Source of the DNA: Candidatus Omnitrophota bacterium
GTDB lineage: Bacteria; Omnitrophota; Gorgyraeia; Zapsychrales; JAHFFX01
NCBI GenBank assembly: GCA_023247705.1
Contig: JAHFFY010000001.1
Span: 33,358 to 97,357, forward strand
DNA: 64,000 bases
Reading direction: 5' to 3'
A program made the position numbers and the translations under genes. Shown piece after piece: positions 10,403-57,330 of the stretch (the first letter of the stretch is position 1; each line of letters starts with the position of its first letter). The notes below the pieces were generated by a model. That model saw only the letters and a program-made list of their open reading frames with translations, made no database searches and was not told the origin of the DNA.

Positions 10403-11359
10403 ATGAATCGTTCTCGACGGCTACGCAAAAATGAAATTATTCGCAATCTGGTCAGGGAAACACGATTAGCGAAAGATCAGCTCATTCAGCCTTTTTTTGT
10501 CTTGGAAGGAAGAAACAGGAAGATTGAGATATCTTCCATGCCCGGGATTTATCGCTATTCAGGAGATTTACTTCTGAAGGCAATTCAGGATTATCAAAAA
10601 TCAGGAGGGAAGGCGGGAATTTTGTTCGGAATTCCCGGGAAGAAAGATTTGCAAGGAAGTCAGGCCTATGCGGACAACGGGATCATTCAAAAAACTCTAA
10701 AACTGATCAAGAAAGAATTTCCAGATTTTTTTGTTATCACTGATGTTTGTTTGTGTGGATATACTACCCACGGACATTGTGGACTTGTGGAAGGCCGACA
10801 GATCCTCAACGATAAAACGCTGCTGCTTTTGACAAAAGTAGCGGTGTCCCATGCGCAAGCTGGAAGTGATATGGTTGCTCCATCGGATATGATGGATTTT
10901 CGGGTTCAGCATATTCGTGCGGGCTTGGATAAGAATGGATTTGAGGATACTCCAATCCTGTCTTATGCCGTCAAGTATTCGTCCGCTTTTTACGGCCCGT
11001 TTCGCGATGCGGTTGATTCAACCCCGCAGTTCGCAGACCGCAAAACTTATCAAATGGATTGTGCTAATCAGCGTGAAGCGATCAAAGAAGCCCGGCAGGA
11101 TGTCATGGAAGGTGCTGATCTGATCATGGTGAAGCCGGCGTTACCGTATTTAGATATCATAACCTTGCTTCGGCATCAGCTCACCGTGCCTATTGTCGGA
11201 TTTAGCGTTAGCGGAGAATACGCGATGATTAAAGCGGCGGCTCGAGCCAAGTGGATTGATGAAAAATCTTCAGTTCTGGAAAGTTTAATTGCGATTAAAC
11301 GCGCAGGTGCGGACATAATTATCTCCTATTACGCGCATGAAGTTTTAACATGGATATAA
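10403..11359 (+). CDS. hemB: Porphobilinogen synthase (delta-aminolevulinate dehydratase)
   Basis: Zn-binding DVCLCGYTTHGHCG; active-site Lys region (MVKPA); full-length ALAD similarity. Confidence 0.9.
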   Translation: MNRSRRLRKNEIIRNLVRETRLAKDQLIQPFFVLEGRNRKIEISSMPGIYRYSGDLLLKAIQDYQKSGGKAGILFGIPGKKDLQGSQAYADNGIIQKTLKLIKKEFPDFFVITDVCLCGYTTHGHCGLVEGRQILNDKTLLLLTKVAVSHAQAGSDMVAPSDMMDFRVQHIRAGLDKNGFEDTPILSYAVKYSSAFYGPFRDAVDSTPQFADRKTYQMDCANQREAIKEARQDVMEGADLIMVKPALPYLDIITLLRHQLTVPIVGFSVSGEYAMIKAAARAKWIDEKSSVLESLIAIKRAGADIIISYYAHEVLTWI

Positions 11360-12633
11360 AAAGATCGAAGCAGATATTTAAGGAAGCCCAGACCGTCATG
11401 GTAGGGGGTGTTAATAGCCCGGTGCGATCTTTTCGGTTGGTGGGAGGACATCCGTTGGTGATGAAATCGGGTCAAGGAAGCCAGTTATTCGATGAAGACC
11501 AAAATGCTTATACGGACTATTGTTTATCCTGGGGCTCTTTGATTCTAGGGCACAGCCACAAAGATATTGTCCAAATCCTGAAAAAAGCGATTGTCCATGG
11601 GACAAGTTTTGGAACCACGACCTCGGCTGAACTTGAGATCGCTAAATTTATTACCAAAAATATTCCATCAATTGAACGCGTTCGGTTTGTTAATTCCGGA
11701 ACTGAAGCAACGATGAGTGCAATACGCGTGGCCAGGGGGTTCACAAAAAAAGAAAAGATCATCAAATTTGATGGCTGCTATCATGGCCATTTTGATGATT
11801 TGTTGACAAAAGCGGGATCCGGCGTTGCCAATTTATCGGAATCCTCGAGTCTTGGGATTACGAAGAACCATATCCAAAATACCTTCAGCCTGCCATTCAA
11901 TGATAGCCAAACGTTTGAAAAAATTGTGACCCAGCATAAAGCTGAAATTGCCTGCGTGATCATTGAACCTGTTGCTGGCAACATGGGGGTTATTCCAGCT
12001 AAAGAGGAGTTTTTGAAAACAATCCGGCAAATCACTCAAAAAAATAATATTGTTCTGATCTTCGATGAAATCATGACGGGTTTCCGCAGTCATATCGGTG
12101 GTGTTCAATCAGAGTTAGGTGTCATTCCTGATATGACCTGTTTGGGAAAAATCATCGGAGGCGGATTCCCCGTTGGCGCGTATGGTGGTAAAAGGGAAAT
12201 CATGTCCTACCTTGCGCCGTTAGGTGGCGTGTATCAGGCTGGAACGTTTGCCGGAAATCCTGTCGTAATGCAAGTTGGTCTGGCGACTTTAAAAAATTTA
12301 ACGCCATCTTTTTACAAAAAACTGAATGCCTTTGCGGATCAATTTGCCCAGAAGTTGAATGCTTTTTTTCAAAAGAATCAAATTGAAGCGTTTTTATCGC
12401 ACTATAAATCCATGATGAGTTTACGATTCAGAAAAAAGCCGGTTGCGAATTACGAAGACGCTGTCGCAGCCTCTTCACAAGCAAAGTATTCTAAAGTTTT
12501 CCACCAGTTATTACGCCATCAAATCTATTGGCCTCCAGCTGATTTGGAAGCATTTTTTTTGTCCGGATCTCATACGCAAGCAGATTTAAATGTGTTATAT
12601 CGATGGATATGTGATTATTTCAGTAAAAATTAA
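11350..12633 (+). CDS. hemL: Glutamate-1-semialdehyde 2,1-aminomutase
   Basis: GGVNSPVRSF signature; class III PLP aminotransferase fold; overlaps the hemB stop. Confidence 0.9.
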   Translation: MDIKRSKQIFKEAQTVMVGGVNSPVRSFRLVGGHPLVMKSGQGSQLFDEDQNAYTDYCLSWGSLILGHSHKDIVQILKKAIVHGTSFGTTTSAELEIAKFITKNIPSIERVRFVNSGTEATMSAIRVARGFTKKEKIIKFDGCYHGHFDDLLTKAGSGVANLSESSSLGITKNHIQNTFSLPFNDSQTFEKIVTQHKAEIACVIIEPVAGNMGVIPAKEEFLKTIRQITQKNNIVLIFDEIMTGFRSHIGGVQSELGVIPDMTCLGKIIGGGFPVGAYGGKREIMSYLAPLGGVYQAGTFAGNPVVMQVGLATLKNLTPSFYKKLNAFADQFAQKLNAFFQKNQIEAFLSHYKSMMSLRFRKKPVANYEDAVAASSQAKYSKVFHQLLRHQIYWPPADLEAFFLSGSHTQADLNVLYRWICDYFSKN

Positions 12634-12683
12634 TTTAGAATGCTAAACATTTTAAGCGTTTGCAAAAGAAAGGAGATGCCGTA

Positions 12684-13079
12684 ATGTACAAGTTCTCTAG
12701 AAATTTATTTTTTGCGTTTTTAGTCGGGGTCATTTCTTTTTCTGCTTCAGGGTGCCTGCCTTTAGTCGTTGGCGCTGCAGCCGGAGCGGGAAGCGTTATT
12801 TGGGCCAAGGGGACCATTCAACAAGATTTCAATAGACCACTTAATAGCGTCTATAAAGCAACCAAGGTGGCCCTGAAGAAACTGGATGTGCCTATTATCG
12901 TTGATAAGAAAGATAACTTGACTGCTCATCTGGAATCGCAATTTGCAGATGGGAAGAAGATCAAAATCGATATCGAATATGTTTCAACCTACACGTCCAA
13001 GATCTCGATCCGGGTTGGCACCCTTGGCGATGAGAATAAATCCAGGGAAATTTTGGAAATGGTCATAAAATATCTCTAA
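12684..13079 (+). CDS. Small lipoprotein, hypothetical
   Basis: Signal peptide with lipobox FSASGC. The ATG at 12684 has an AAAGGAG RBS 9 nt upstream; the track ORF uses a TTG at 12660. Confidence 0.5.
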   Translation: MYKFSRNLFFAFLVGVISFSASGCLPLVVGAAAGAGSVIWAKGTIQQDFNRPLNSVYKATKVALKKLDVPIIVDKKDNLTAHLESQFADGKKIKIDIEYVSTYTSKISIRVGTLGDENKSREILEMVIKYL

Positions 13080-15323: not shown

Positions 15324-15339
15324 TGGCACACTAGTTGCT
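15324..15339 (+). promoter_or_regulatory. Sigma-54 (-24/-12) promoter, TGGCAC-N5-TTGCT, heading the EPS operon
   Basis: Exact consensus match: TGGCAC at 15324-15329, 5-nt spacer, TTGCT at 15335-15339. About 85 nt upstream of the first gene (15425). Confidence 0.7.
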
Positions 15340-41187: not shown

Positions 41188-43089
41188 ATGGATACGATGC
41201 CAAAACGATTAACTGCAATTATTTCAATTTTCCTAATTTTATTAGCAGAAATATGTGCTGCGTCCTATATTGATACATTTCTATATTCATTTCATCGCAG
41301 GTTGTTAGTTTCGCGTTTTGTTTTTTTCTTAGTCGTGATGCTGAGTTTGTCTGTAGCGGTGCGATTAAAATCGAAGATAGCCGTTTTCGTGAGAGAATTC
41401 TTTTCAACGCCTGAACATCCTTTGAACTTGGCCGTTTTTCGGGTCGTTTTATTCGGGACGCTCTACCAAAGTTCGGATCTCGTCCAGTTGATTCAATTCA
41501 GCCAAATCCCTTCGGTCTTGATTTTCCCTCCGTTCGGTACAGAATGGATTCTTCGGTTTCTTCCGATCAATACCCATTTGGCGATTATCAGCTGGGTTAT
41601 TTTTCGTATTTTTTGCTTAAGCGCTATGATCGGTTATTGCACGCGCATTAGTATTTTAGGGACAATTCTTTCAGCGCTATATGTCTTGGGGATTCCCCAA
41701 TTTTTTGGCAAAGTTGATCATCCCTATCTTCACCTCATTTGGTTCGCCATGATTTTAAGCGTCAGTCCGTGTGCAGATCTTGGGTCAGTCGATGCATTAT
41801 TAACGTTAAAGAAGACGAAAGCTGTCAGCTTAAGAAAAATAACCCCATCTCTTGAATATGCATTACCATTACGCTTTGTCTGGTTACTCATAGGGATAAT
41901 TTATTTTTTTCCTGGCGTTTGGAAGTTATGGAAGGGTGGTTTTGATTGGGCACTGAGCGAGAATATACAATTCACGCTTTACCTTAAATGGTATGAATTT
42001 TCTGATTGGGTTTCTTCATTTCGGTTGGATCACCATCCCATTCTTTATCGCCTTTTTGGACTTGGAGCGATTGTTTTTGAACTCTCATTCATTTTCTTGA
42101 TTTTTCTACCGCGTATGCGTCTTTGGATTGCCGGTATAGGACTTTTATTCCATAATTTGACCAATCTTGTCTTTCGTATTTCCTTCTGGAATTTACAAAC
42201 CTGTTACGTTGCCTTTGTCAATTGGCATCAGGTTTTTCAAAAGATAGGGAAGAGGTTCTCTAGAGAAAAATTATATGTCATCTATGATGGACACTGTTCT
42301 TTTTGCATACAAACCGTCAACTGCTTGCAGATGTTTGATGTATTTGATCAATTGATATGTGTCAATGCGAATGATAGAAATCAATTAAATGTGCATCCCT
42401 TGTCTGGGCTTGATCGAGAGGCTATTTTAAAGGACATGCATGTTGTCGATGGAAAAAATGTTTATTTGGGTTTTTCCGCTTACCGTGCTTTAGCCAGACG
42501 GATTCCCATATGCTGGATATTCCTGCCGTTTTGCTATCTTGGTTTTGTGAATCGGATCGGCAATCAAGTTTACCGAACGATTGCGGATCATCGTCAATGT
42601 GCGATCAATGTGAACAAAACCTTTGAGGCCCAATCCCATCCCTTGCCTGGGTCTTCTTTAAATGGCATCGTTGTGGTCGGGATATTATCAGTATTGATGA
42701 ATATTTATGTTGGGACCAAACAGATCACCCAGGGCTGGCCGTTTGCCTGTTATCCTACCTTTTCTGATCTCGCCCATGGCACAACAACGACGATCGAGAT
42801 AGAAGCGGATAGTTTTAACGGCAAGAAAGTTGTCTTAACTCAACATCAAATGAGTAATAATTTTGAAGAACATCGTTTTCGCGGATTGTTAAGTAAAATC
42901 CTGGCAACCAAGGATAAAAAGCTACAAGAAATGCAACTAAACGCTTTATGGACACTTTACACGCGATATAATTCTCATTTAGGGAATATCAAGACTGTTT
43001 ACTTCTATCGTGTTGAACGGCTAACTTCTCCCGAAATGAAAAAACATAATTTGCTGAAACGAGAATTAATTCTGGTGAACGAATTTTAA
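41188..43089 (+). CDS. Multi-pass membrane protein: HTTM (gamma-carboxylase-like) domain fused to DCC-family thiol-disulfide oxidoreductase (DUF393) plus unknown C-terminal domain
   Basis: N-terminal ~330 aa polytopic with HTTM-like conserved stretch; middle LYVIYDGHCSFCIQTV (DGxCxxC of the DCC family); ~150-aa C-terminal domain of unknown function. Confidence 0.5.
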   Translation: MDTMPKRLTAIISIFLILLAEICAASYIDTFLYSFHRRLLVSRFVFFLVVMLSLSVAVRLKSKIAVFVREFFSTPEHPLNLAVFRVVLFGTLYQSSDLVQLIQFSQIPSVLIFPPFGTEWILRFLPINTHLAIISWVIFRIFCLSAMIGYCTRISILGTILSALYVLGIPQFFGKVDHPYLHLIWFAMILSVSPCADLGSVDALLTLKKTKAVSLRKITPSLEYALPLRFVWLLIGIIYFFPGVWKLWKGGFDWALSENIQFTLYLKWYEFSDWVSSFRLDHHPILYRLFGLGAIVFELSFIFLIFLPRMRLWIAGIGLLFHNLTNLVFRISFWNLQTCYVAFVNWHQVFQKIGKRFSREKLYVIYDGHCSFCIQTVNCLQMFDVFDQLICVNANDRNQLNVHPLSGLDREAILKDMHVVDGKNVYLGFSAYRALARRIPICWIFLPFCYLGFVNRIGNQVYRTIADHRQCAINVNKTFEAQSHPLPGSSLNGIVVVGILSVLMNIYVGTKQITQGWPFACYPTFSDLAHGTTTTIEIEADSFNGKKVVLTQHQMSNNFEEHRFRGLLSKILATKDKKLQEMQLNALWTLYTRYNSHLGNIKTVYFYRVERLTSPEMKKHNLLKRELILVNEF

Positions 43090-47419: not shown

Positions 47420-48564
47420 AAACCATATTCTGGATTTTATTCATATTAATCGTGTACTGTTATTTTGGATATCCGATCCTGCTTAGCGTTTTCGCCAGCT
47501 GCCGTACGCGAAAAGTTATAAAACAAGAAATTTTTCCAACCATTTCCGTTGTGATCTCGGTTGCGAATGAGGAATCGGTCATTGAGAAGAAGATGAGTAA
47601 CCTTTTATCCATGGATTATCCTTCCGACAAACTGGAAATTTTAATCGGATCGGATGGTTCAACGGATAAAACGAATGATATCGTCCGAAATTTTAACGAC
47701 AAACGCATTCAGCTAATTGTTAGTTCACAGCGAAAAGGGAAGATGGCGACCGTTAATCAACTGGTTCAACTGGCCCAAAACGAAATGATCGTTTTTACGG
47801 ATGCCCGTCAGATGTTTGACCGAGTTGCTTTTAAGGAATTGGTTTTTAACTTTGCCGATCCACACGTAGGATGTGTCAGCGGAGAGTTGATTTTTACGAA
47901 AAAGGAAGGCTCGACCGCTCAGGGAATTAATCTATACTGGGAATATGAAAAATTTATGCGTCAAAAAGAAAGCCAACTTCATTCCATGATCGGGGCAACA
48001 GGAGCGATCTATGCGATCCGTCGAAAATTGTTTGTTCCTGCGCCGACCAATATGATTTTGGATGATGTTTTTACGCCGCTTAAAATTGTTCAACAAGGGT
48101 ACCGTGCGATCTTTGAGGGACAGGCGATCGCTTACGATGAAGCGGCAAACAACCCAAAAGAAGAATATGCGCGGAAAGCCAGAACCTTAGCCGGCAATTA
48201 TCAGATATTTTTTGTTTTGCCGGACATCTTTAACCCCTTGAAAAGTCCTTTGGCGATTCAGATGTTCTCGCATAAACTGCTAAGGGTTTTGATCCCATTT
48301 TTTTTGATTTTTTTGCTCATTATCAATTTTAAATTAAGAAACAATCAATTTTTTATTTTTATTTTATGGGGCCAGATCCTTTTCTACGGGATGGCGATAT
48401 TGGGAAGCTTGGCAAAAAAACCAAAATATGCTATTCTTAAGCCTATTTCTAAAATGTGTTATATTCCCTATGTCTTTTGTCTCCTTAATTTCTCTGCTTT
48501 AGCTGGATTTTGGCGCTTTGTTCGGTCTTCGCAGACGGTCACTTGGGAGAAGGCAAGGACTTAG
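47416..48564 (+). CDS. Family 2 glycosyltransferase with N- and C-terminal TM segments (processive-type topology)
   Basis: ISVVISVANEE, DGSTD, TDAR motifs; C-terminal multiple TM helices. Confidence 0.75.
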   Translation: MKTIFWILFILIVYCYFGYPILLSVFASCRTRKVIKQEIFPTISVVISVANEESVIEKKMSNLLSMDYPSDKLEILIGSDGSTDKTNDIVRNFNDKRIQLIVSSQRKGKMATVNQLVQLAQNEMIVFTDARQMFDRVAFKELVFNFADPHVGCVSGELIFTKKEGSTAQGINLYWEYEKFMRQKESQLHSMIGATGAIYAIRRKLFVPAPTNMILDDVFTPLKIVQQGYRAIFEGQAIAYDEAANNPKEEYARKARTLAGNYQIFFVLPDIFNPLKSPLAIQMFSHKLLRVLIPFFLIFLLIINFKLRNNQFFIFILWGQILFYGMAILGSLAKKPKYAILKPISKMCYIPYVFCLLNFSALAGFWRFVRSSQTVTWEKART

Positions 48565-48586
48565 CGAAACGATTCAAAATAACGAT

Positions 48587-49405
48587 ATGCGTGAGTTAAT
48601 TACAAAATATAAAAACCAATTTTTAATTGCTTTAATCTTATTATTTACCTATACGCCCACATTAATTTGGATGTGGGATCGATGGTTTACTCGGGATTCT
48701 TATTATTCGCATGGGATTCTTATTCCATTCATTACAGCTTATTTAATCTGGCAGAATAGATCACAGTTAATGCAGATGAAACCAGAAAAATCCGAGATAG
48801 GGATGAAATTGATCATTCTCGGACTGTTTGTTCATTTAATTAGTTCTCTTTTCCGGGTTTATTTTTCCTCTGGTTTTTCTCTGGTGATTGTTATTATCGG
48901 ACTCATTCTTTATTTTTATGGAGAAAAAATTTTAAAAGATATCTCGTTCCCGATCGTTTTTTTATTTTTTATGGTTCCCTTACCGCTGGTTGTTATTATC
49001 AATATTAGTTTTAAGATGAAATTATTCGCGGCTCAAATTGCGGCTGTTGTGTTAAATAGCATGAATATTCTGGCGGTCAGGGAGGGGAGCCTGATTCGCA
49101 TGGCTAATGCCCAAGTTGTCGTCGATGATGTCTGCAGCGGGTTGCGATCTTTGATGTCGTTGACGGCCTTAGGAAGCATTTTTGCGTATTGGATGAAAGG
49201 GCCGATGTGGAAGCGGCTTTTACTGTTTTTGTCTACAGTCCCCATCGCGGTGATCACAAATGTGTGCCGAATTATATTGCTTGCTTCGGTCAGCGAGATT
49301 TGGGGGTCGAAATACGCGACGGGGTTTATTCATGATCTTTCTGGCTTTATTGTTTTTGCGTTAGCTTTTATTTTATTGTATTCAGTTTCTAGGTTAATGG
49401 AATAA
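48587..49405 (+). CDS. Exosortase (EpsH/XrtA family)
   Basis: Eight-TM architecture. Conserved exosortase motifs: DDVCSGLRSL (catalytic Cys region), NVCRIILL (Asn/Arg) and the HD-like C-terminal motif. The track ORF starts at 48518, overlapping the upstream gene. Confidence 0.85.
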   Translation: MRELITKYKNQFLIALILLFTYTPTLIWMWDRWFTRDSYYSHGILIPFITAYLIWQNRSQLMQMKPEKSEIGMKLIILGLFVHLISSLFRVYFSSGFSLVIVIIGLILYFYGEKILKDISFPIVFLFFMVPLPLVVIINISFKMKLFAAQIAAVVLNSMNILAVREGSLIRMANAQVVVDDVCSGLRSLMSLTALGSIFAYWMKGPMWKRLLLFLSTVPIAVITNVCRIILLASVSEIWGSKYATGFIHDLSGFIVFALAFILLYSVSRLME

Positions 49406-49407
49406 AT

Positions 49408-50043
49408 ATGATACGTGATAAAAATTTTGGCATCATTGTTTGTCTTCTATTAATTTCCGGAATAATTTCCTGGGTTTTATATTTCAAGGAATATACTCAA
49501 GTGGATACAGTGGATATTACCAAATTTCCGAAATCGATATCGGGCTGGACAGCTGAAGATCTTCCAATCAGCAAGGAAGAGTATGATATTTTAGAGACTC
49601 ACAATGTCGTAGCAAGGCGTTATAAAAATATTCAGAATGAACCGATATATCTCTTAATTGTTTATTCTCAGCATAATCGCAAAATTTCTCATCCTCCAGA
49701 AGTTTGCTATACAGGGGGAGGCGTTACTATTTTAGAAAATGTTAAAGATAAGATCCCTGTTTCTGCAGGAAAGAATATAATCAGTGCGAACCGATTACTT
49801 TTAGAGCTAAGGGGGACCAAGCAGTTTTCGTATTATTGGTTTAAAGTAGGCGATTCGTTTACCGCGAACTATTGGAATCAACAAGCCCTCATTGCCGTAA
49901 AAACATTGTTTGGGCAGCCTCATAGTAGCGCATTAATTCGAATTTCATCCGACATCAGCAAGAATGATGAAAAAGGGGCTATTGATCGAATTAAGTACTT
50001 TACAAATTTGATCCTAAATGATTTAAATCGATATCTGCCGTAA
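49408..50043 (+). CDS. EpsI-family exosortase-associated protein
   Basis: N-terminal TM; size, position (immediately 3' of exosortase) and ISGWTAEDLPISKEEYDIL...VVARRY region match the EpsI family. Confidence 0.7.
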   Translation: MIRDKNFGIIVCLLLISGIISWVLYFKEYTQVDTVDITKFPKSISGWTAEDLPISKEEYDILETHNVVARRYKNIQNEPIYLLIVYSQHNRKISHPPEVCYTGGGVTILENVKDKIPVSAGKNIISANRLLLELRGTKQFSYYWFKVGDSFTANYWNQQALIAVKTLFGQPHSSALIRISSDISKNDEKGAIDRIKYFTNLILNDLNRYLP

Positions 50044-50297: not shown

Positions 50298-50313
50298 TGG
50301 CACATTATTTGCT
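50298..50313 (+). promoter_or_regulatory. Sigma-54 (-24/-12) promoter, TGGCAC-N5-TTGCT
   Basis: Exact consensus at 50298-50303 / 50309-50313; about 45 nt upstream of the ATG at 50358; the same 16-mer architecture as the promoter at 15324. Confidence 0.7.
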
Positions 50314-50357: not shown

Positions 50358-51224
50358 ATGGAAACTCAGAAAAAAATCAATCACAACTCTAAAGGAAAAA
50401 TGACAGTTGTTTTAGCGGTCATTTTCCTCATGCTATTTGTTCAAGCAGCTTGGGCGACCCTTTCCTTTCTCAAACCGTATGACAGTGACATCCAATCAAC
50501 GAATATAAAGGAAGGCAATGCATCAGAAATTCCTGAGCAATTACCCGAAAATTCGAAATCGCATGCTCCTGAGCCGACAACTCTAGCGTTATTTGGGAGT
50601 GGTGTTCTTGGGATGGTTGTGAGTGCCATTCGAAAGGCTTATAACCATGCAAAAAGAATTTTTGATATATTTGTATCAATTGTCGCTTTTATCATCCTTT
50701 CTCCATTGTTTTTATTTGCTGCCGTTCTCATCAAGTTGAGCTCCCGCGGACCGGTTTTGTTCACCCAAGAGCGAGTAGGAAAAGATGGAAAACATTTCAA
50801 AATTTATAAATTCCGTACCATGCGCGTGGATGCTGAGAAAGAAACAGGGCCGGTTTGGGCAAAGGCAAATGACACTAGACTTATCCCTTCCGGACGTTTT
50901 TTAAGAAAGACTCATATTGATGAAATCCCTCAGTTTTTTAATGTCCTTATAGGTGACATGAGTATTATTGGGCCAAGACCTGAACGGCCAGTTTTCGTAA
51001 CTAAATTTAAAGAAATTATTCCTGATTATGAACAAAGACTATCAGTCAAACCGGGCATTACTGGTTTAGCGCAAGTTTGGCATAAATATGATGAGACGAT
51101 CGAAGATGTCCGTAAAAAAATCCGTTATGATTTGTTATATATTAAAAAGTTATGTCTTTGGACTGATTTAAAGATATTTTTAAGGACTTTTCGGGTTGTT
51201 CTAACTGGAGAGGGAGCTCGATAG
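50358..51224 (+). CDS. Polyprenyl-phosphate sugar phosphotransferase (small WcaJ/EpsL-type priming enzyme) with an N-terminal signal-peptide + PEP-CTERM-like module
   Basis: The catalytic domain starts at KRIFDIFVSIV..., the usual N-terminus of small priming sugar transferases, and contains RTMRVDAE and IIGPRPERP motifs. The preceding 85 aa carry a signal peptide (VVLAVIFLMLFVQAAWA) and a PEP-CTERM-like motif (APEPTTLALFGSGVLGMVVSAIRKAYNHAKR). Confidence 0.75.
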   Translation: METQKKINHNSKGKMTVVLAVIFLMLFVQAAWATLSFLKPYDSDIQSTNIKEGNASEIPEQLPENSKSHAPEPTTLALFGSGVLGMVVSAIRKAYNHAKRIFDIFVSIVAFIILSPLFLFAAVLIKLSSRGPVLFTQERVGKDGKHFKIYKFRTMRVDAEKETGPVWAKANDTRLIPSGRFLRKTHIDEIPQFFNVLIGDMSIIGPRPERPVFVTKFKEIIPDYEQRLSVKPGITGLAQVWHKYDETIEDVRKKIRYDLLYIKKLCLWTDLKIFLRTFRVVLTGEGAR

Positions 51225-51377: not shown

Positions 51378-52289
51378 ATGAAGAAGTTATTTGTAGTTTT
51401 AGCCCTAGTTGTTGGAGTGTTCTCAATTAACTCCCAAGTTTGGGCACAACCGTTTACACCATCGATGGCGGGAGATACTTATGATACTACGCCAGATGCG
51501 ATCCCGACTCCTAAGGATAATAATGATAACTTAGGACCTTATTCGGGTACGCCTTATACGTTAAGTTCAACAGAACCTGGTTCACATGGACCTAACCCGG
51601 CGGACATCAACGATGCCATCAATTTGCTTTTGAGCACTGCTTACGTAAGAAATCAAGATGTTGATTTCCTTCGTTTTCTTGGCCCAGATGCAACCTGGAA
51701 AGACTTGAGCACAATAGATAACGATGGAACATATGTGCTCGTTTCTCTTACCGCAGCTAACGAAAATACCTTAAGAGTGTATGATGTGGCTTCACCTGGG
51801 ATTAAATTGAATGTTCTTGGCCCAGATCGGGGTTTTGGATATACTGGGGATGGAAGCCTGGCTAAACCTTTTGAGGCTGGTTTTTCTCCATTAACTCCAG
51901 GAACGAACTTTGGTTGGTCACTAAAAAGTGAAAGAAAGGCACCCCAGACTCCTCCATTTTTTGTAAGAGAATGGGATTCCAATGTCGCTTTTAACGTTGA
52001 TGGTTTGGATCATATGTTGACATACCATTTAGCCGATTTAAAAGGTAAGAAAGTTTACATCAAAGTTGGCACGGTTGTTCAGCAGTATACGTTTAACGAT
52101 CCATATCTTTTAGCCTGGGAAGACAAAGGATTAGGCACAGATGGTAAACTAGGCGATGAAGATTATGATGATCTTATTTATCTAGTTGATCGCGTTCAAC
52201 CTTTCAACCCGGTTCCAGAACCGATGAGCATGATGTTGCTCGGTAGTGGGTTGGTTGGTTTAGTTGGTTTAAGAAAGAAGATTAGTTAA
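51378..52289 (+). CDS. PEP-CTERM domain secreted protein (exosortase substrate)
   Basis: Sec signal peptide (AQP cleavage); C-terminal VPEPMSMMLLGSGLVGLVGLRKKIS (PEP motif + TM helix + basic tail). Confidence 0.85.
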   Translation: MKKLFVVLALVVGVFSINSQVWAQPFTPSMAGDTYDTTPDAIPTPKDNNDNLGPYSGTPYTLSSTEPGSHGPNPADINDAINLLLSTAYVRNQDVDFLRFLGPDATWKDLSTIDNDGTYVLVSLTAANENTLRVYDVASPGIKLNVLGPDRGFGYTGDGSLAKPFEAGFSPLTPGTNFGWSLKSERKAPQTPPFFVREWDSNVAFNVDGLDHMLTYHLADLKGKKVYIKVGTVVQQYTFNDPYLLAWEDKGLGTDGKLGDEDYDDLIYLVDRVQPFNPVPEPMSMMLLGSGLVGLVGLRKKIS

Positions 52290-52381: not shown

Positions 52382-52660
52382 ATGTCAAAAGACACGAAAA
52401 AACTTTTATCTTTTGCCCTTATCTCGTTATTTCTCCCGTTCTTTGTCGGGTGTCAAGGTGCTGCCAATCAACTAAGTGAATTCACCTTGGGTGGGGGTGG
52501 TACAAACAATGCTGTTAGTTCTGGTTTTTTCCCCCTTAGTGTTGTAGATGGAGGTACTGCGATAGCAGCCATCCACAATCCAGAACCTACAACAGTGTTA
52601 TTGTTAGGGAGTGGCTTCATAACAATGGGTTTATATAGGAATCGAAGAAAGAATAGATAA
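52382..52660 (+). CDS. Mini lipoprotein with C-terminal PEP-CTERM domain (dual-anchor exosortase substrate)
   Basis: Lipobox FFVGC after a signal peptide; C-terminal HNPEPTTVLLLGSGFITMGLYRNRRKNR; AGGAGAGGAGG RBS. Confidence 0.75.
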   Translation: MSKDTKKLLSFALISLFLPFFVGCQGAANQLSEFTLGGGGTNNAVSSGFFPLSVVDGGTAIAAIHNPEPTTVLLLGSGFITMGLYRNRRKNR

Positions 52661-52686: not shown

Positions 52687-52731
52687 AAAAAAATACGGTA
52701 GGATGAGTGATCTTCCTACCGTATTTTTTTT
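52687..52731 (+). terminator. Rho-independent (bidirectional-type) terminator after the PEP-CTERM genes
   Basis: A-tract at 52687-52692; 11-bp stem ATACGGTAGGA (52693-52703) / TCCTACCGTAT (52714-52724); 10-nt loop; T8 at 52725-52732. Confidence 0.8.
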
Positions 52732-52770
52732 ATTCGTGACCGTACTTAAGGCAAAAATTTGGCTTTATGT

Positions 52771-52836: not shown

Positions 52837-53706
52837 ATGAATAAGCATAAAAACAATAAAAGTTTGATTTCTTTGCTGCGGTCATCAATTGAGATTCTAT
52901 TTCATAAACCATTGATTTTCTATCCCTATGTGATTTCAATTTTTATTCAACTTTTTGTGCTTGAAATTTTATACTTTGCACCGCGGTATCCTTTATCGCT
53001 ATTTTTTGCTCCCCTGATCAGACAATTTTGGGGGGAAATGTTTTTACATTTTCCGTTTAATCTCCTTTTATTGCCTGTTTTATTCCAATACGTAAAAACC
53101 CCGATTTATATTATCTCGAGCAGTTATCTCATTGGGATAGCAATCATTATCATCGCTGCCATTAACGAAGATCAAACGATTAGCTTTAAATCGGCCGCCA
53201 AAAAGGTATTGCCTCGCTATATCCATTTGATCTTCATCACTAGCATTTCTTATTCACTTTTTTATGGATTTTCGCAACTTTATGGATTGGTGATCAAAAG
53301 GGCCTTTATTATTCACTCTGAGACAGGAATATTTTATTTAATTAAGCGGATTGTGCTTGATGGGACTCCCTTTTTCTCCCTTTTAATAAGCGTTTTTGTT
53401 TCGACCCTCTTAGTTTTTATGATGCCGCTCCTCCTGCTCGAAAAAAAGAATTTATTCGCAGCGTTTTGGACTAATTTGAAGAAAGTTATTAAATCCTTCT
53501 GGTTTGTCTTGGGGATTGTTTTATTGCCGACCTTGTTATATCTGCCAGTCTTGTTATTGAGTAGTAATCTATCGAGTTTTGGAAATGGGGTTGCTCCTGA
53601 AATCCGAATGTCCCTCACAATAGCCAATATCCTTATTATAGTGATCATTGATGCCATCGTTTATACAGCGATAACATTATATTATTTATTTGATCAAGAA
53701 AATTAA
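52837..53706 (+). CDS. Polytopic membrane protein, hypothetical (possibly the detached sensor module of a PrsK-like kinase)
   Basis: About 7 predicted TM helices; no catalytic motifs; first gene of the operon containing the TPR protein, histidine kinase and sigma-54 regulator. Confidence 0.4.
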   Translation: MNKHKNNKSLISLLRSSIEILFHKPLIFYPYVISIFIQLFVLEILYFAPRYPLSLFFAPLIRQFWGEMFLHFPFNLLLLPVLFQYVKTPIYIISSSYLIGIAIIIIAAINEDQTISFKSAAKKVLPRYIHLIFITSISYSLFYGFSQLYGLVIKRAFIIHSETGIFYLIKRIVLDGTPFFSLLISVFVSTLLVFMMPLLLLEKKNLFAAFWTNLKKVIKSFWFVLGIVLLPTLLYLPVLLLSSNLSSFGNGVAPEIRMSLTIANILIIVIIDAIVYTAITLYYLFDQEN

Positions 53707-54614
53707 TGATTAAACGATCAATATTAATCTTTACCAGCATTCTCACCGTAGTCTATGGAATTCTTACTTTCCTTGACAGGGGGGGAGAGTATCAAGTCGA
53801 GCAGATGATTTGGAAGGCGAATGAAAAATTTCATGAGATCGCCAGAGATCCTGCCGCAGTTCCCGATCAATCTTTTGACCAACTTAGTCGACAGTATCAA
53901 AAAATTATTGAAAAATTCCCTAAATCGCCGTTAGCCAAAAAAGCGTATTTGGCGATTGGAAGGTTATATTTGGTGCAAAAAGATTTTCCGAAAACACGAC
54001 TAGTCATGGAGAAAGTCCTGCAAAGATATCCGGATGATCAGGATTTCTCAGCGGAATGTCTTACGGTCATAGGAAAATCATATGAGTTGGCAGGAGATCC
54101 GGTCAACGCGGTTAAGGTTTACACAGGCATAATGACCCAATATCCTGTAACGGATATCGGACTAAGTACGCCGTTATATATCGCAAATTATTACAAGAGC
54201 ATAAATCAAAACAATAAATTTATGTCAGCCTATAATAGTGCGATTTCACATTATAAAACTCTATCAGCGAAATATCCTAATTCCTCAACAGATCTGAAAA
54301 GTCTTCGTTTATTGGCGAATTGTTATATTGAAATGAAAATGTGGAATGAGGCCGTAGAGACTTTCGGACAGATATTAATATCATACCCTTCTAAGGCTGA
54401 TCTCACCCCGCAACGGGCAAATTTGATCCTCAAATCGATTAATACTATTTCAACCATCCAGCTTAAGAATTATGATATTCCGATACGCATATACCAAAAC
54501 TTCATTGATCAACATCCCCAACATGGTTTAAACAAGGTTCTCCATGAGATGATAAAATCCTTTAATCTCTTGCGAATTAAAGGCGTGGAGGTCGACACTA
54601 AGAATGCGGGATAA
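53706..54614 (+). CDS. TPR-repeat protein (PrsT-like)
   Basis: N-terminal TM/signal segment followed by several TPR-like 34-residue repeats (AYLAIGRLYLVQKDF..., AECLTVIGKSYELAGD...). Confidence 0.6.
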   Translation: MIKRSILIFTSILTVVYGILTFLDRGGEYQVEQMIWKANEKFHEIARDPAAVPDQSFDQLSRQYQKIIEKFPKSPLAKKAYLAIGRLYLVQKDFPKTRLVMEKVLQRYPDDQDFSAECLTVIGKSYELAGDPVNAVKVYTGIMTQYPVTDIGLSTPLYIANYYKSINQNNKFMSAYNSAISHYKTLSAKYPNSSTDLKSLRLLANCYIEMKMWNEAVETFGQILISYPSKADLTPQRANLILKSINTISTIQLKNYDIPIRIYQNFIDQHPQHGLNKVLHEMIKSFNLLRIKGVEVDTKNAG

Positions 54615-54623
54615 ATCCTACGC

Positions 54624-55934
54624 TTGATTATCATGACTAGAACACTAGAAGATTTTTCTCACAGCATTCTTTTTCAAAAAATTAGCGATATTTGTGCCAG
54701 CGTTAATATCGTTAAGAATGCGCGCGAACTTTTAGAATTGTCCTTGAAGCAAACGATGGATCTTTTTGGCGCAAAAAGAGGCTCGATTTTTATTTTTAAT
54801 GAGAATAAGAAAGAATTGATCCTGAAGATCGCGCATGGTATGGAAATAAATGAACAAAAGCAAATGGTCAAACGTTTGGGAGAAGGAGTGGTCGGTAAGG
54901 TTGCTCAAATCAAAAAGCCTATTGTTGTCTATGATATCGCGGATGACAGCCGATTTAACAATTTTAAACCTAGGCGAAGCTATCATACACCATCGTTCAT
55001 TTGTGGTCCGCTGTTAATTAAAGATAAACTCATAGGGGTCATTAACATTGCGGATAAAAATTCTGGACATCGTTTTAATAATGAAGAGCTTCAGCTCCTT
55101 GATTTTTTGTCAAGTCAGATTGCCCTGAACTATCGGCGCATACAACTGTATCAGAAATTTAAGAATTTAGTCAAAGAGTCCAAATACCTTAAAACTAAAT
55201 TAGGCAAAAGCAGCGCTGAAGCAGATGATCTAAAGAAGAAAATTGTAGTGCAAGAAAAATTTGCCTCAATCGGGAAACTTGCTGGAGGCATTGCGCATGA
55301 ATTTAATAACCCTTTAGATGGCGTTATCCGCTACACAAATCTTTCGTTAGAGCATATTAAAGACGATGATGTCGTTCGTGGATATTTATTAGAAATTAAG
55401 TATGGCCTTAATCGTATGGCAAATATCGTGAGAAGTCTTCTTGCCTGTTCACGAAATTCACGTCTTGCTATAGAGGAAATCGAAATTAATCGTTCGATTG
55501 AACAAGTGATTCTTAATCTTAAATCAGAAATTGCATATAAGAAGTTAATCATCGAGAAAGATTTTGATCATACGATCCCACCGATTATGGATTTAGGGAT
55601 GGAGTTAATCGTTTCCAACTTGTTTCGTAATGCCATTGACGCAGTTGATAAGGGGGGGAAAGTCACGGTTGTTACGCGAAATTTACACAATTATGTTTCG
55701 CTTAAAATCATTGATTCAGGATGCGGATTTTCAAGAGAATTAGCTCAAAAAATATTAGAGCCATTTTATACAACCAAAGACATTGATAAAGGATGTGGCT
55801 TAGGGTTAACGATTGTTAACGAAATCGTCAAGAGTTATGACGGAAAGATGACGATTGAAAGCGTCCCGAAAAAAGGTTCAACATTCACGATTTTTATTCC
55901 ATTAAAGATAAAAGATGAAAAAAGAATTATATAG
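54624..55934 (+). CDS. Sensor histidine kinase with N-terminal GAF domain (cytoplasmic; PrsK-like partner of the sigma-54 regulator)
   Basis: GAF domain (res ~30-180); H-box HEFNNPL; N/G1/G2 boxes (NAIDAV...; IDSGCGF; GCGLGL). Confidence 0.8.
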   Translation: MIIMTRTLEDFSHSILFQKISDICASVNIVKNARELLELSLKQTMDLFGAKRGSIFIFNENKKELILKIAHGMEINEQKQMVKRLGEGVVGKVAQIKKPIVVYDIADDSRFNNFKPRRSYHTPSFICGPLLIKDKLIGVINIADKNSGHRFNNEELQLLDFLSSQIALNYRRIQLYQKFKNLVKESKYLKTKLGKSSAEADDLKKKIVVQEKFASIGKLAGGIAHEFNNPLDGVIRYTNLSLEHIKDDDVVRGYLLEIKYGLNRMANIVRSLLACSRNSRLAIEEIEINRSIEQVILNLKSEIAYKKLIIEKDFDHTIPPIMDLGMELIVSNLFRNAIDAVDKGGKVTVVTRNLHNYVSLKIIDSGCGFSRELAQKILEPFYTTKDIDKGCGLGLTIVNEIVKSYDGKMTIESVPKKGSTFTIFIPLKIKDEKRII

Positions 55935-57330
55935 CGCCTATCACATCCTCATTGTAGATGATGAGCCGCTGATTCGACAGTCATTGTATGAAATCTTGAG
56001 AATTGAGGGCTACAAAGTACATATGGCTCAAAATGGAGAAGAAGCGATAGAATTACTCAAAAAATTTCATATTGATATTATTTTAACGGATATGAAGCTT
56101 CCTAAAATGAGCGGGCTTGATATTCTGACTTTTGTGAAAGAAAACAAGCCTGACATCGAAGTTATATTAATAACGGGTTTTGGAACAATCGAATCTGCTG
56201 TCGATGCCATGCGAAAAGGGGCTGCAGACTATATCACAAAACCAATCAATGATAGTGAAATTAAAATTATTCTTAACCAAATTGTAGAACGCAAACAAAT
56301 TCTTAAAGAAAATTTAAATTTAAAAAAGATTATCGCACAAACTTCCCGAAAATCTTTTTGCAGTATCATTGGATCCAGCCCGAAAATGCAGAAGGTCTAC
56401 CACGTGATTGACTGTGTTGCAAGCACGAATGCGACAGTCCTAATTACAGGGGAAAGTGGAACAGGAAAGGGTTTGGTGGCGAGAGCAATTCATGAAAGTG
56501 ATCAGAATCGATCCGAGAAACCTTTTGTAGAGGTCAGCTGTGGGGCTCTTTCGGAAACATTGCTTGAAAGTGAGTTGTTTGGACATGCCAAAGGATCATT
56601 TACTGGAGCAATTCGAGATAAAGAGGGAAGATTTGAAATCGCGCAGGGTGGAACGATTTTTCTCGATGAGATTGATGCATTTTCGCCTAATTTACAAGCG
56701 AAACTTTTACGCGTATTGCAAGATGGAGTATTTGAACGTGTTGGCGATAACCAAACGCGAAGAACTAATGCTCGAATTATCGTTGCCACCAATCAGGTTT
56801 TAACCGATTTAGTGGAGAAAGAACTTTTTAGAGAAGATCTTTATTACCGAATCAATGTGATTTCGATTCAATTGCCTCCGTTACGAGAACGAAGGGATGA
56901 TATTGATTCTTTAATAACGCATTTCATTCAGATGTATGCCCAAAAAAATAATAAAAAGATTACTAAATTATCAGAAGATGCCCATAAAGTTTTTATAACA
57001 TATGAATGGCCAGGAAATATTCGTGAACTGGAAAATGCCATCGAAGGCGCTGTCATTATGACGAAAGACCATGTCATTAATATTTCAGATGTCCCCAATC
57101 ATACCAAATTTTCAGCTTCAACGTCGTTAAGCACTAATAAATCATCAAGCTCTAAATCTCTTAAGAAAGTGTTAGAACAGCCAGAAAGAGAACTTATTCT
57201 TTCTGTTCTCGATGAATGCAATTGGAATCGCAACAAAGCCGCGGCGAATTTAGGAATAAACAGGACAACCTTATATAACAAAATGAAAAAATTTAAAATT
57301 ATCTTTGACCGGGTCAAAACGCATGAATAA
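55915..57330 (+). CDS. Sigma-54-dependent response regulator (NtrC family; PrsR-like)
   Basis: Receiver domain (phospho-acceptor Asp in ILTDMKLP); AAA+ sigma-54 activation domain with GESGTGKG, ESELFGH and GSFTGA (GAFTGA variant); C-terminal Fis-type HTH. Confidence 0.9.
   Translation: MKKELYSAYHILIVDDEPLIRQSLYEILRIEGYKVHMAQNGEEAIELLKKFHIDIILTDMKLPKMSGLDILTFVKENKPDIEVILITGFGTIESAVDAMRKGAADYITKPINDSEIKIILNQIVERKQILKENLNLKKIIAQTSRKSFCSIIGSSPKMQKVYHVIDCVASTNATVLITGESGTGKGLVARAIHESDQNRSEKPFVEVSCGALSETLLESELFGHAKGSFTGAIRDKEGRFEIAQGGTIFLDEIDAFSPNLQAKLLRVLQDGVFERVGDNQTRRTNARIIVATNQVLTDLVEKELFREDLYYRINVISIQLPPLRERRDDIDSLITHFIQMYAQKNNKKITKLSEDAHKVFITYEWPGNIRELENAIEGAVIMTKDHVINISDVPNHTKFSASTSLSTNKSSSSKSLKKVLEQPERELILSVLDECNWNRNKAAANLGINRTTLYNKMKKFKIIFDRVKTHE

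Follow-up and report, generated by a model that had tools for sequence, protein, structure and literature searches.

The open reading frame (ORF) at 50358..51224 on the forward strand of the window (the whole 64-kb stretch of DNA that was analysed) encodes a conserved fusion protein, in which a Sec signal peptide, a short periplasmic segment and a bona fide PEP-CTERM are followed by a complete PglC-like monotopic phosphoglycosyl transferase (PGT). The only PGT catalytic domain found in the 64-kb window is that of this ORF, and judged by sequence it appears to be the only priming enzyme that we found in the ~43-kb exopolysaccharide (EPS) locus around it, which is of the Wzx/Wzy type and XrtA-like. 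A preliminary description of this DNA had proposed that signal peptide, spacer, PEP-CTERM and small PGT lie in one frame, and our profile searches and alignments confirmed this layout. The fusion is made of known parts in a new arrangement, which are located as follows:

50298..50312 (+), sigma-54 type -24/-12 promoter element TGGCACATTATTTGC, 46 nt upstream of the ATG at 50358
50358..51224 (+), whole ORF of 288 aa: signal peptide, linker, PEP-CTERM and monotopic PGT
50358..50456 (+), predicted Sec signal peptide, aa 1-33: n-region basic, h-region at aa 15-30, then A31-W-A33 / T34
50457..50564 (+), predicted periplasmic linker, aa 34-69 (~36 aa), from alignments
50565..50636 (+), PEP-CTERM sorting domain, aa 70-93: APEP, the TM helix TTLALFGSGVLGMVVSAI, then RK
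50637..50657 (+), predicted cytoplasmic junction AYNHA-KR, aa 94-100, with Y95, K99 and R100 invariant in the alignment
50652..51203 (+), monotopic PGT catalytic core, aa 99-282: PF02397, with PglC and WbaP matches by sequence and fold

Hydrophobicity analysis identified three hydrophobic segments in the 288-residue protein (residues 14-36, 74-91 and 100-128). The first of these is the h-region of the signal peptide and ends in AWA|T, as seen from hydrophobicity and inspection of the alignments. The signal peptide was assigned by inspection of its n-, h- and c-regions, hydrophobicity and the family alignment, in which [AST]-W-A followed by T or A is kept at the predicted cleavage site throughout the family. 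By the same inspection, signal peptide and PEP-CTERM reside on one protein. In the alignments the linker has a conserved start (TLSF.KP.D) and a SEIP-like patch, the remainder being variable, and its residues 41-59 have a pLDDT below 50 in the AF2 model.

The tripartite PEP-CTERM layout is present, with P71-E-P73 followed by the hydrophobic helix 74-91 and R92-K93. Residues 70-93 score 23.0 bits with the Pfam profile PF07589 (cut-off 20.7) and, by a narrow margin, 16.8 bits with TIGR02595 (cut-off 16), so that the proposed sorting domain stands above both curated cut-offs, whereas the preliminary description had named a score below noise as evidence against its own reading. The same signal peptide, PEP motif, Gly-rich TM helix of ~18 aa and basic cluster are known from canonical PEP-CTERM cargo (Haft et al. 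2006, PMC1569441), such as the flocculation protein PepA. They also share a sigma-54 promoter after a long non-coding leader and a gene context of exosortase and EPS genes. However, in canonical cargo the stop codon follows the basic cluster, whereas in the window protein a 195-aa cytoplasmic enzyme follows it, and all family members are alike in not having the tag at the extreme C-terminus. The preliminary description had counted 85 residues before K-R and a spacer of four residues between RK and KR. In fact, 98 residues precede K99 from the first ATG (85 fits the second ATG, at 50400) and the spacer AYNHA is five residues long.

The catalytic core is complete. PF02397 (Bac_transf) matches residues 99-282 with 233.6 bits (cut-off 27) over profile positions 1-178 of 179. 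In the alignment of 120 homologues K99, R100, the D188-E189 dyad and the G205-P-R-P-E-R-P211 motif are invariant, and the re-entrant helix (~aa 100-128) carries S115-P116, conserved or invariant. The dyad aligns with the LDELPQ motif of PglC. The AF2 model (pLDDT 81) matches 8g1n_A (E 7.5e-14) and 8t53_A (E 2.8e-11) in Foldseek searches, and PglC (8e37/8g1n) and WbaP (8t53) match the core by sequence as well as by fold. PglC of Campylobacter (PDB 8e37, 8g1n) has the same K-R ahead of a Ser-Pro-kinked re-entrant helix, the same Asp-Glu dyad and the same PRP motif, with 39% identity to the window core, a Foldseek E of about 1e-13 and a TM score (target) of 0.75-0.79. PglC starts ~7 residues before K-R, whereas the window protein has ~95 extra residues comprising signal peptide, linker and PEP-CTERM helix. 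Since residue 8 of PglC aligns to residue 96, these N-terminal residues are a true extension, as had been claimed.

The relation to the large enzymes is different. TIGR03013 (EpsB-type) enzymes and the large PGTs WbaP and WcaJ (PDB 8t53) share the priming role and the exosortase-associated EPS locus, and the catalytic half of TIGR03013 is homologous to the window PGT. They are ~440-530 aa in length and possess an N-terminal multi-helix bundle and a cytoplasmic domain but no sorting signal. In the window protein only ~98 residues with two hydrophobic segments lie ahead of the core, and the N-terminal half of the large PGTs is replaced by signal peptide and PEP-CTERM. Consistent with this, TIGR03013 reaches 268.9 bits against a full-length cut-off of 393.35, with model positions 252-443 alone aligned, and the alignment to WbaP begins only at WbaP residue 325. 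TIGR03025 (EPS polyprenyl glycosylphosphotransferase) exceeds its cut-off (313.7 against 295.55 bits) through model positions 242-445 of 445 only, and the N-terminal half of this model is without counterpart in the window protein. The joining of a monoPGT core to another functional module is itself familiar from Bi-PGTs, which a passage of PMC10312794 (citing O'Toole et al. 2021) describes as monoPGT cores fused N- or C-terminally to 'functional domains'.

All of the 120 best homologues have the same architecture, and those that are named belong to Candidatus Omnitrophota. PF07589 is matched in 116 of the 120 at E<=1e-3. P71, E72 and P73 are invariant among them at an overall identity of just 60-73%, and almost all of them have a distance of 28 aa between PEP and KR. 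A metagenome scan with the DNA-level motif APEP[ST]T.A[LF]FG recovered 46 ordinary C-terminal PEP-CTERM tails, with 24-34 aa from A-PEP to the stop codon, and 22 PGT fusions on independent contigs, in which this distance is a constant 219 aa, as it is in the 120 closest homologues. The motif is above chance because of the 116/120 PF07589 matches, the invariant PEP and the 46 tails and 22 fusions taken together. A scan of species-representative genomes with the pattern GP..Q.RV added at least four true fusions (L007-L010). In the PEP segment, 38 codons in 21 pairwise comparisons gave 223 identical, 290 synonymous and 285 replacement codons, a pattern that marks the segment as translated and subject to purifying selection.

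These data bear on the possibility that a small PEP-CTERM gene and a small PGT gene were fused by a sequencing error, or that the true start of the protein is M86. M86 is nearly invariant and a start there would yield a PglC-sized protein, and a few metagenome copies (P0156, P0177, P0248) are truncated or frameshifted. Against this, the frame with its constant 219 aa is unbroken in the 120 homologues and the 22 contigs, substitutions at conserved residues are mostly synonymous, the promoter sits ahead of the full ORF, and several members have V, I or L in place of M86. An error fusion, which the preliminary description had raised against its own reading, is ruled out by this conservation and codon pattern, an internal start is judged unlikely, and we consider an artefact of either kind very improbable. 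The short matches P0141, P0152, P0156, P0177, P0221 and P0248, considered as stand-alone mini N-modules, are all fragments: each continues into K-R-x-F-D and ends with its contig or in a frameshift-like tail.

What could such a protein do? We lean, with some caution, towards the explanation that the exosortase binds the embedded tag and probably cleaves it at PEP, so that the PGT is brought to the exosortase and sorting is coupled to polysaccharide initiation. After cleavage of the signal peptide, the PEP-CTERM helix would cross the membrane from outside to inside and its basic tail would pass directly into the K-R with which the re-entrant helix starts. This would place the catalytic domain in the cytoplasm and the PEP motif at the periplasmic face, where exosortase acts. 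This topology, proposed earlier, appears self-consistent and is upheld. The AF2 model draws residues 74-128 as a single continuous helix, a geometry that the membrane-embedded protein cannot have, and the model accordingly lends no support to the topology. The adjoining exosortase would bind the PGT-borne helix like that of ordinary PEP-CTERM cargo, and with the probable cleavage at PEP the sorting reaction would have the PGT as its 'leaving group'. The cargo would be a small periplasmic peptide here and a full surface-protein domain in divergent relatives. The chain-starting enzyme would thus be made 1:1 with an exosortase substrate, and sigma-54 would control it as it controls such substrates; the PGT being brought to the exosortase would couple sorting and polysaccharide initiation in space and time. 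To our knowledge, no experiment or structure has an exosortase binding or cleaving a PEP-CTERM that is not C-terminal, and this counts against the explanation, as does the 'cargo' of only ~35 aa in the Omnitrophota form.

The gene neighbourhood contains the partners that this explanation would need:

48518..49405 (+), exosortase (EpsH family): PF09721 222.8 bits, TIGR02602 173.6 (cut-off 105.55)
49408..50043 (+), EpsI, exosortase-associated protein: TIGR02914 91 bits (cut-off 42.8), PF11984
51378..52289 (+), stand-alone PEP-CTERM cargo protein (DUF4114-like), 303 aa: PF07589 25.2 bits, aa 278-300
52382..52660 (+), 92-aa mini PEP-CTERM protein with a lipobox-like FVGC: TIGR02595 21.5 bits
52837-53706 (+), conserved multi-pass membrane protein, no family match
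53706-54614 (+), TPR protein
54624..57330 (+), GAF histidine kinase and sigma-54-dependent response regulator (PrsK/PrsR-like)

The same genome thus holds an exosortase and PEP-CTERM paralogues (at 51378 and 52382) besides the fusion. The exosortase has the TIGR04178 signature (70.5 bits), and its true start is probably a few codons past the listed TTG. The general exosortase model TIGR02602 and the EpsI model TIGR02914 pass their thresholds at this locus, whereas the XrtA equivalog and marker models all fall below theirs: XrtA itself (184.9 bits, cut-off 208), pepcterm_ChnLen (241, 279), pepcterm_ATPase (302, 324.5) and, for the kinase/regulator pair, PrsR (TIGR02915; 401, 502.6) and PrsK (TIGR02916; 85, 300). 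From these scores the locus appears to be XrtA-like yet divergent. The preliminary description had called the N-terminal module 'clearly paralogous' to the C-terminus of the mini lipoprotein at 52382. This could not be sustained: the likeness amounts to 12/25 identities confined to the PEP-CTERM, which is generic consensus, and by BLASTP it is no better than that to the neighbour at 51378 (9/17). The fusion and the 52382 protein have the same PEP-CTERM flavour (L.GSG), and a counterpart of the latter was found in L002/L003.

Gene order is well kept among orthologous loci. Exosortase and EpsI are directly upstream of the fusion gene in the window and in L001, L002, L008, L009 and L010, and of the 16 metagenome loci whose upstream flank reaches 1.6 kb or more, 13 have EpsI upstream on the same strand. 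Every locus examined has a stand-alone PEP-CTERM cargo gene immediately 3' of the PGT, and the multi-pass membrane protein and the TPR protein are kept downstream in L002, L004, L005 and L007. The sigma-54 element at 50298..50312 is one of two perfect matches across the window. All of the 7/7 orthologous loci have an equivalent element, 215-304 nt ahead of the PEP codon, and 20/22 metagenome loci have one before the full-length ORF (27/29 loci combined). Such a promoter is the regulatory signature given for PEP-CTERM genes by Haft et al. (PMC1569441).

This synteny and promoter signature also weigh on another reading, namely that the module derives from a PEP-CTERM gene and that its present role is purely to set the topology of a small PGT or to anchor it in the membrane, the exosortase not acting on it. 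Such an anchor would stand in for the four-helix N-domain of the large PGTs. The reading is attractive in that the tag is not C-terminal and has a junction specific to the PGT, with the invariant Y95 and the fixed 28-aa PEP-KR spacing, and in that the divergent loci L004 and L006 have no exosortase within 10 kb. The embedded tag also has its own conserved flavour ([KR][ST][RH]-A-PEP, Y95) and is better conserved across genomes than the adjoining cargo tails; this stronger conservation could stem from constraints of the PGT instead of those of the exosortase. However, P-E-P is invariant in 120 sequences of such limited overall identity, and a plain anchor would need neither the motif nor a cleavable signal peptide nor a periplasmic segment. 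Together with the tight association with exosortase and EpsI and the sigma-54 signature, these points make a mere anchor the less likely reading, though not a remote one.

Divergent relatives bear on the same question. In these, surface-protein domains of 120-260 aa are found ahead of the same PEP-CTERM-PGT junction. P0135 consists of a choice-of-anchor N domain (NF038141, 53.8 bits, cut-off 40), PEP-CTERM and PGT; P0139 and P0144 have a common 240-aa N-domain (42% identity, E 3.5e-50); and P0153 carries a PKD domain in front of the fusion. In P0135 the domain is followed by a PEP-CTERM as in ordinary choice-of-anchor proteins, but these stop after the PEP-CTERM where P0135 continues into the PGT; the window protein is without the choice-of-anchor domain. 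The presence of genuine cargo domains ahead of the tag speaks against an anchoring role alone and argues that the tag works as a sorting signal. In L005, whose contig also holds exosortase and EpsI, the PGT-embedded tag is identical at 19/31 positions to the tails of two co-resident cargo proteins. The divergent fusion P0174 comes from Elusimicrobiota. Spread to other phyla was also considered from MAG labels ('Planctomycetales', 'Lysobacterales'), which are too unreliable for such a claim.

If the exosortase does recognize the tag, recognition might serve control instead of sorting. Cleavage would then activate or release the PGT, or an uncleaved tag would throttle the exosortase; in the pro-enzyme variant this would be a checkpoint by which EPS starts only with the sorting machinery present. 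The comparative evidence is the same as for sorting coupled to initiation, and the very short, partly conserved periplasmic peptide of the Omnitrophota form resembles a handle more than cargo. Nothing separates a regulatory role from simple co-localisation, and the full cargo domains of the long forms fit ordinary sorting better, so that we regard regulation as quite unlikely. An extension of the preferred explanation, which we hold to be unlikely as well, if a little less so, is that the acceptor of the exosortase is a lipid-linked glycan. The PGT, tethered to the exosortase through its PEP-CTERM helix, would make the polyprenyl-PP-sugar in cis, and the exosortase would transfer the cleaved cargo onto this nascent precursor or its polymer. 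If true, PEP-CTERM proteins would be covalently attached to exopolysaccharide at chain initiation, the cargo being a short peptide or, in the long forms, a full choice-of-anchor or PKD domain, and the fusion would act as a Rosetta stone that identifies the acceptor pathway and a physical complex.

Since 2006, exosortase and exopolysaccharide synthesis have been linked through the co-occurrence of their genes and a small number of genetic phenotypes. Here, a natural fusion conserved across a phylum joins an exosortase-type sorting signal covalently to the enzyme that starts a glycan, which provides a physical, testable link between protein sorting and sugar-polymer synthesis. Recognition or cleavage of the module by the exosortase, and the resulting coupling, would be accessible with this ready-made construct: whether an internal PEP-CTERM is a substrate for exosortase, what remains of the protein afterwards, and whether there is one complex. 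A fusion of PEP-CTERM and PGT is not described in the full-text literature searched; the survey of O'Toole et al. 2021 may list the architecture. The working assumption that a PEP-CTERM is always C-terminal is corrected by this family; it would make annotation pipelines and scans for sorting signals miss such proteins. Proteins of the family are currently annotated just as 'sugar transferase'.

PEP-PGT, the 288-aa product of the + strand ORF at 50358–51224, whose frame is without interruption, joins a signal peptide, a linker and a PEP-CTERM segment (the tag) to a monotopic phosphoglycosyl transferase (PGT). Its two Pfam domains are PF07589 (PEP-CTERM) on residues 70–93 (23.0 bits; gathering score 20.7) and PF02397 (Bac_transf) on residues 99–282 (233.6 bits). 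The NCBIfam model TIGR02595 (PEP_CTERM) agrees with Pfam at 16.8 (cut-off 16), so that the PEP-CTERM module proposed in the preliminary description scores above the cut-offs of both models, and TIGR03025 reaches 313.7 (cut-off 295.55). Three hydrophobic segments were identified in a hydropathy scan, namely the h-region of the signal peptide (14–36), ending with A31-W-A33 followed by T34, the PEP-CTERM helix (74–91) and the PGT re-entrant helix (100–128), which includes S115-P116.

Comparison with solved structures supports the earlier view of an N-terminal extension. Since residue 8 of PglC (205 aa) is the start of its alignment, at residue 96 of PEP-PGT, and the WbaP alignment begins only at WbaP residue 325, PEP-PGT is a small PglC-like PGT with an extension of ~95 residues and not of the large WbaP/WcaJ type. 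The extension had been given as 85 aa ahead of K99, but 98 residues are counted from the first ATG, and the spacer between R92-K93 and K99-R100 consists of five residues (AYNHA), not four. The PGT fold is borne out by the AF2 model (pLDDT 81), in which residues 74–128 form a single helix; the model therefore carries no reliable information on membrane geometry. All testable defining features of the monotopic PGT superfamily are present, and sequence and fold together point to a catalytically competent enzyme. PEP-PGT falls outside TIGR03013, to which the PGTs of XrtA loci usually belong.

Among 5.8 billion clustered proteins, more than 8000 PGT matches were found, of which the best 120 were analysed. 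These are 251–332 aa long (most 270–300), with 59–72% identity across the full alignment and a query coverage of 77–100% (most >90%), and their named sources are Candidatus Omnitrophota or Omnitrophica. All 120 share a basic n-region, a hydrophobic h-region, [AST]-W-A before T/A, a linker, the tag and KR. The linker (~35 aa) has a conserved start, TLSF.KP.D, and often contains SEIP; it is followed by [KR][ST][RH]APEP[ST]T[LM]ALFGSG..GM..SFVR[RK]TY...KR.FD. P71, E72, P73, Y95, K99 and R100 are invariant in these 120, PF07589 is found at E≤1e-3 in 116 and PF02397 in every one, and the spacing from PEP to KR is 28 residues in almost all. Seven loci were compared pairwise (21 comparisons) over 38 codons around the tag; 223 codons were identical, 290 differed synonymously and 285 were replacements. 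The codons therefore differ at more than half of the conserved residues, as in a segment that is translated and under purifying selection. This pattern, the layout common to the best 120 homologues and the recurrence of the fusion on many independent metagenome contigs rule out a sequencing error or other artefact.

As an unbiased control, JGI metagenomes were scanned for degenerate DNA encoding APEP[ST]T.A[LF]FG. Among 77 matches, 46 are ordinary C-terminal PEP-CTERM tails (13–34 aa from A-PEP to stop, nearly all 24–34), 22 are PGT fusions and nine are truncated or unclear; in all 18 complete fusion ORFs the distance from A-PEP to stop is 219 or 220 aa. Because one motif retrieves both classes, the embedded tag cannot be told apart from genuine sorting tails at the level of the motif, and it has every sequence feature of PEP-CTERM signals except the C-terminal position. 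We regard it as rather doubtful that the module is now only a membrane anchor.

The gene lies within a long + strand exopolysaccharide (EPS) locus, with the following features.

15649, + strand: Wza-like exporter, first in the locus order
With the exporter at the locus beginning, + strand: chain-length determinant, PEP-CTERM-system-like ATPase and tyrosine autokinase
Between the export genes and the exosortase, + strand: many glycosyltransferases and deacetylases
38704, + strand: Wzy-like polymerase
48518–49405, + strand: exosortase
49408–50043, + strand: EpsI
50298–50312: perfect sigma-54 -24/-12 element TGGCACATTATTTGC, within the 314-nt gap 5' of the PEP-PGT gene
51378, + strand: 303-aa PEP-CTERM protein, after PEP-PGT
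52382–52660, + strand: 92-aa PEP-CTERM mini protein, after the 303-aa protein
3' end of the locus order, + strand: membrane protein without annotation, TPR protein, GAF histidine kinase and sigma-54-dependent response regulator

The best NCBIfam matches of the locus proteins are XrtA-system models, all below equivalog cut-offs; the locus is XrtA-like but divergent. PEP-PGT is the only PGT found in the 64-kb window by tblastn with the catalytic domain as query. The order exosortase, EpsI, gap, PEP-PGT, cargo gene (encoding an ordinary PEP-CTERM protein) is kept in related loci L001, L002/L003, L008, L009 and L010. Of the metagenome loci, 16 extend at least 1.6 kb upstream; in 13 of these EpsI lies upstream on the same strand, with exosortase nearly always ahead of it.

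The mini protein at 52382 had been considered clearly paralogous to the module. The likeness holds within the PEP-CTERM segment (12/25 identities) and nothing beyond it is shared; it is thus not specific, and is no stronger than that of the tail of the 303-aa neighbour (9/17). The mini protein comprises a lipobox-like signal peptide (FVGC), a Gly-rich spacer of ~40 aa and PEP-CTERM, paralleling the PGT module in size and layout, without sequence similarity outside the tag; a counterpart is present in L002/L003. Just 3' of its gene, an inverted repeat rich in G+C leads into a T-run (52690–52735); by eye the two resemble an intrinsic terminator, at which the PGT-cargo-mini gene group would end.

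Perfect sigma-54 -24/-12 matches occur only twice in the window, at 50298–50312 and 15324–15338. The seven Omnitrophota-type loci examined first all carry an equivalent of the former 215–304 nt upstream of the PEP codon, which is about 45–75 nt ahead of the start codon, as do 20 of the 22 metagenome loci. Of the remaining two, one offers 135 nt of upstream sequence, which is too short, and L098 has ~300 nt with no match. In Proteobacteria, PEP-CTERM cargo genes were described with a long leader and a sigma-54 site some 70 nt ahead of the start, together with the set PrsK/PrsR/PrsT (Haft et al., PMC1569441); the gene of the priming enzyme therefore shares their promoter type and long leader. 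Transcription initiation is thereby placed, on sequence grounds, upstream of the entire ORF; to alternative start sites, as to a purely regulatory role of the module, we assign a smaller weight than to an anchor. The second match, TGGCACACTAGTTGC, precedes the Wza-like gene that opens the EPS operon by ~310 nt, so the sigma-54 regulator encoded at 55915 may control the whole locus.

A junction profile (alignment A3), running from PEP-10 through the whole re-entrant helix, gave 282 matches at E≤1e-10 among 1.84 billion representatives; of the best 150, 33 combine PEP, helix and K-R-x-F-D. In addition to the short Omnitrophota form, the matches reveal long forms with a 120–260-aa extracytoplasmic region ahead of the same junction: P0135 (458 aa), P0139 (485 aa), P0144 (480 aa), P0148 (428 aa), P0174 (421 aa; NCBI name Elusimicrobiota bacterium) and P0153 (372 aa; with a PKD domain). 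PF07589 is above threshold in P0135, P0139, P0144 and P0138. P0139 and P0144 have N-domains that share 42% identity over 242 aa (E 3.5e-50), which makes the long form a conserved family in its own right and rules out a read-through accident. Residues 31–214 of P0135 match NF038141, 'choice-of-anchor N' (53.8 bits; cut-off 40); such domains belong to surface proteins found with alternative sorting anchors (10.1101/2023.03.06.531300). Its contig carries exosortase and EpsI upstream of the fusion and, directly before it, two stand-alone PEP-CTERM proteins whose tails (IPEPGSMLLFGTGLIGLIGIGRRRFF-stop) are identical at 19/31 positions to the tag inside the PGT (IPEPGTLLLFGTGLLGMIGSFARKRF...). Real cargo, a tag of local flavour and a PGT are therefore joined in one chain.

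Given the positive-inside rule and what is known of monoPGT and PEP-CTERM protein topology, the signal peptide would be removed and the linker would be periplasmic, with the PEP-CTERM helix spanning from outside to inside, R92, K93, K99 and R100 at the cytoplasmic face, and the re-entrant helix and catalytic domain in the cytoplasm. The comparative data suggest, with odds we place slightly above even, that exosortase recognises and engages the tag. Cleavage at PEP, as proposed for ordinary exosortase substrates, would leave the PGT in the membrane, and the periplasmic peptide (a full cargo domain in long forms) would be carried away. Functionally, the simplest interpretation is that glycan initiation is co-localised and co-regulated with protein sorting. 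In recent accounts the exosortase-EPS link is still given as inferred. PEP-PGT, as a conserved natural 'Rosetta stone' from uncultured organisms, makes that link directly testable, and the function put forward here is a proposal.

Full-text searches, whose reach excluded the monoPGT-architecture survey of O'Toole et al. 2021, found no paper on the fusion. Because precomputed Pfam tables carry both domains on about half of the homologues, the architecture is visible in databases, yet as far as can be told it has received no discussion.

A 289-aa multi-pass membrane protein without a Pfam match (52837–53706), followed by a TPR protein (53706–54614), is conserved on the 3' side of PEP-PGT and the cargo genes, both in Omnitrophota loci and in the divergent L005 (the P0135 contig) and Elusimicrobiota L004 loci; because of this conservation, the pair may be an unrecognised core component of the system. 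Also within the EPS locus, a 633-aa protein (41188–43089) has a DCC1-like thiol-disulfide oxidoreductase domain at residues 364–470, the remainder being without a family match. In L004 (contig JBHOUV010000003.1), a 525-aa PEP-CTERM protein (11301–12878) adjoining the fused PGT contains, besides its C-terminal tag, an internal PEP and hydrophobic-helix segment (around 11988), which would be another non-terminal PEP-CTERM. P0161 (483 aa), a junction-profile match, has a PGT with an N-terminal transmembrane segment and a C-terminal penicillin-binding-protein transpeptidase-like region, and may be a true fusion or the product of a chimeric assembly. Unambiguous PEP-PGT family members of Omnitrophota type in MAGs labelled Lysobacterales or 'uncultured Planctomycetales' (L010, JBLINE010000003.1; L007; L008) more likely reflect binning or labelling problems than true phylum spread.
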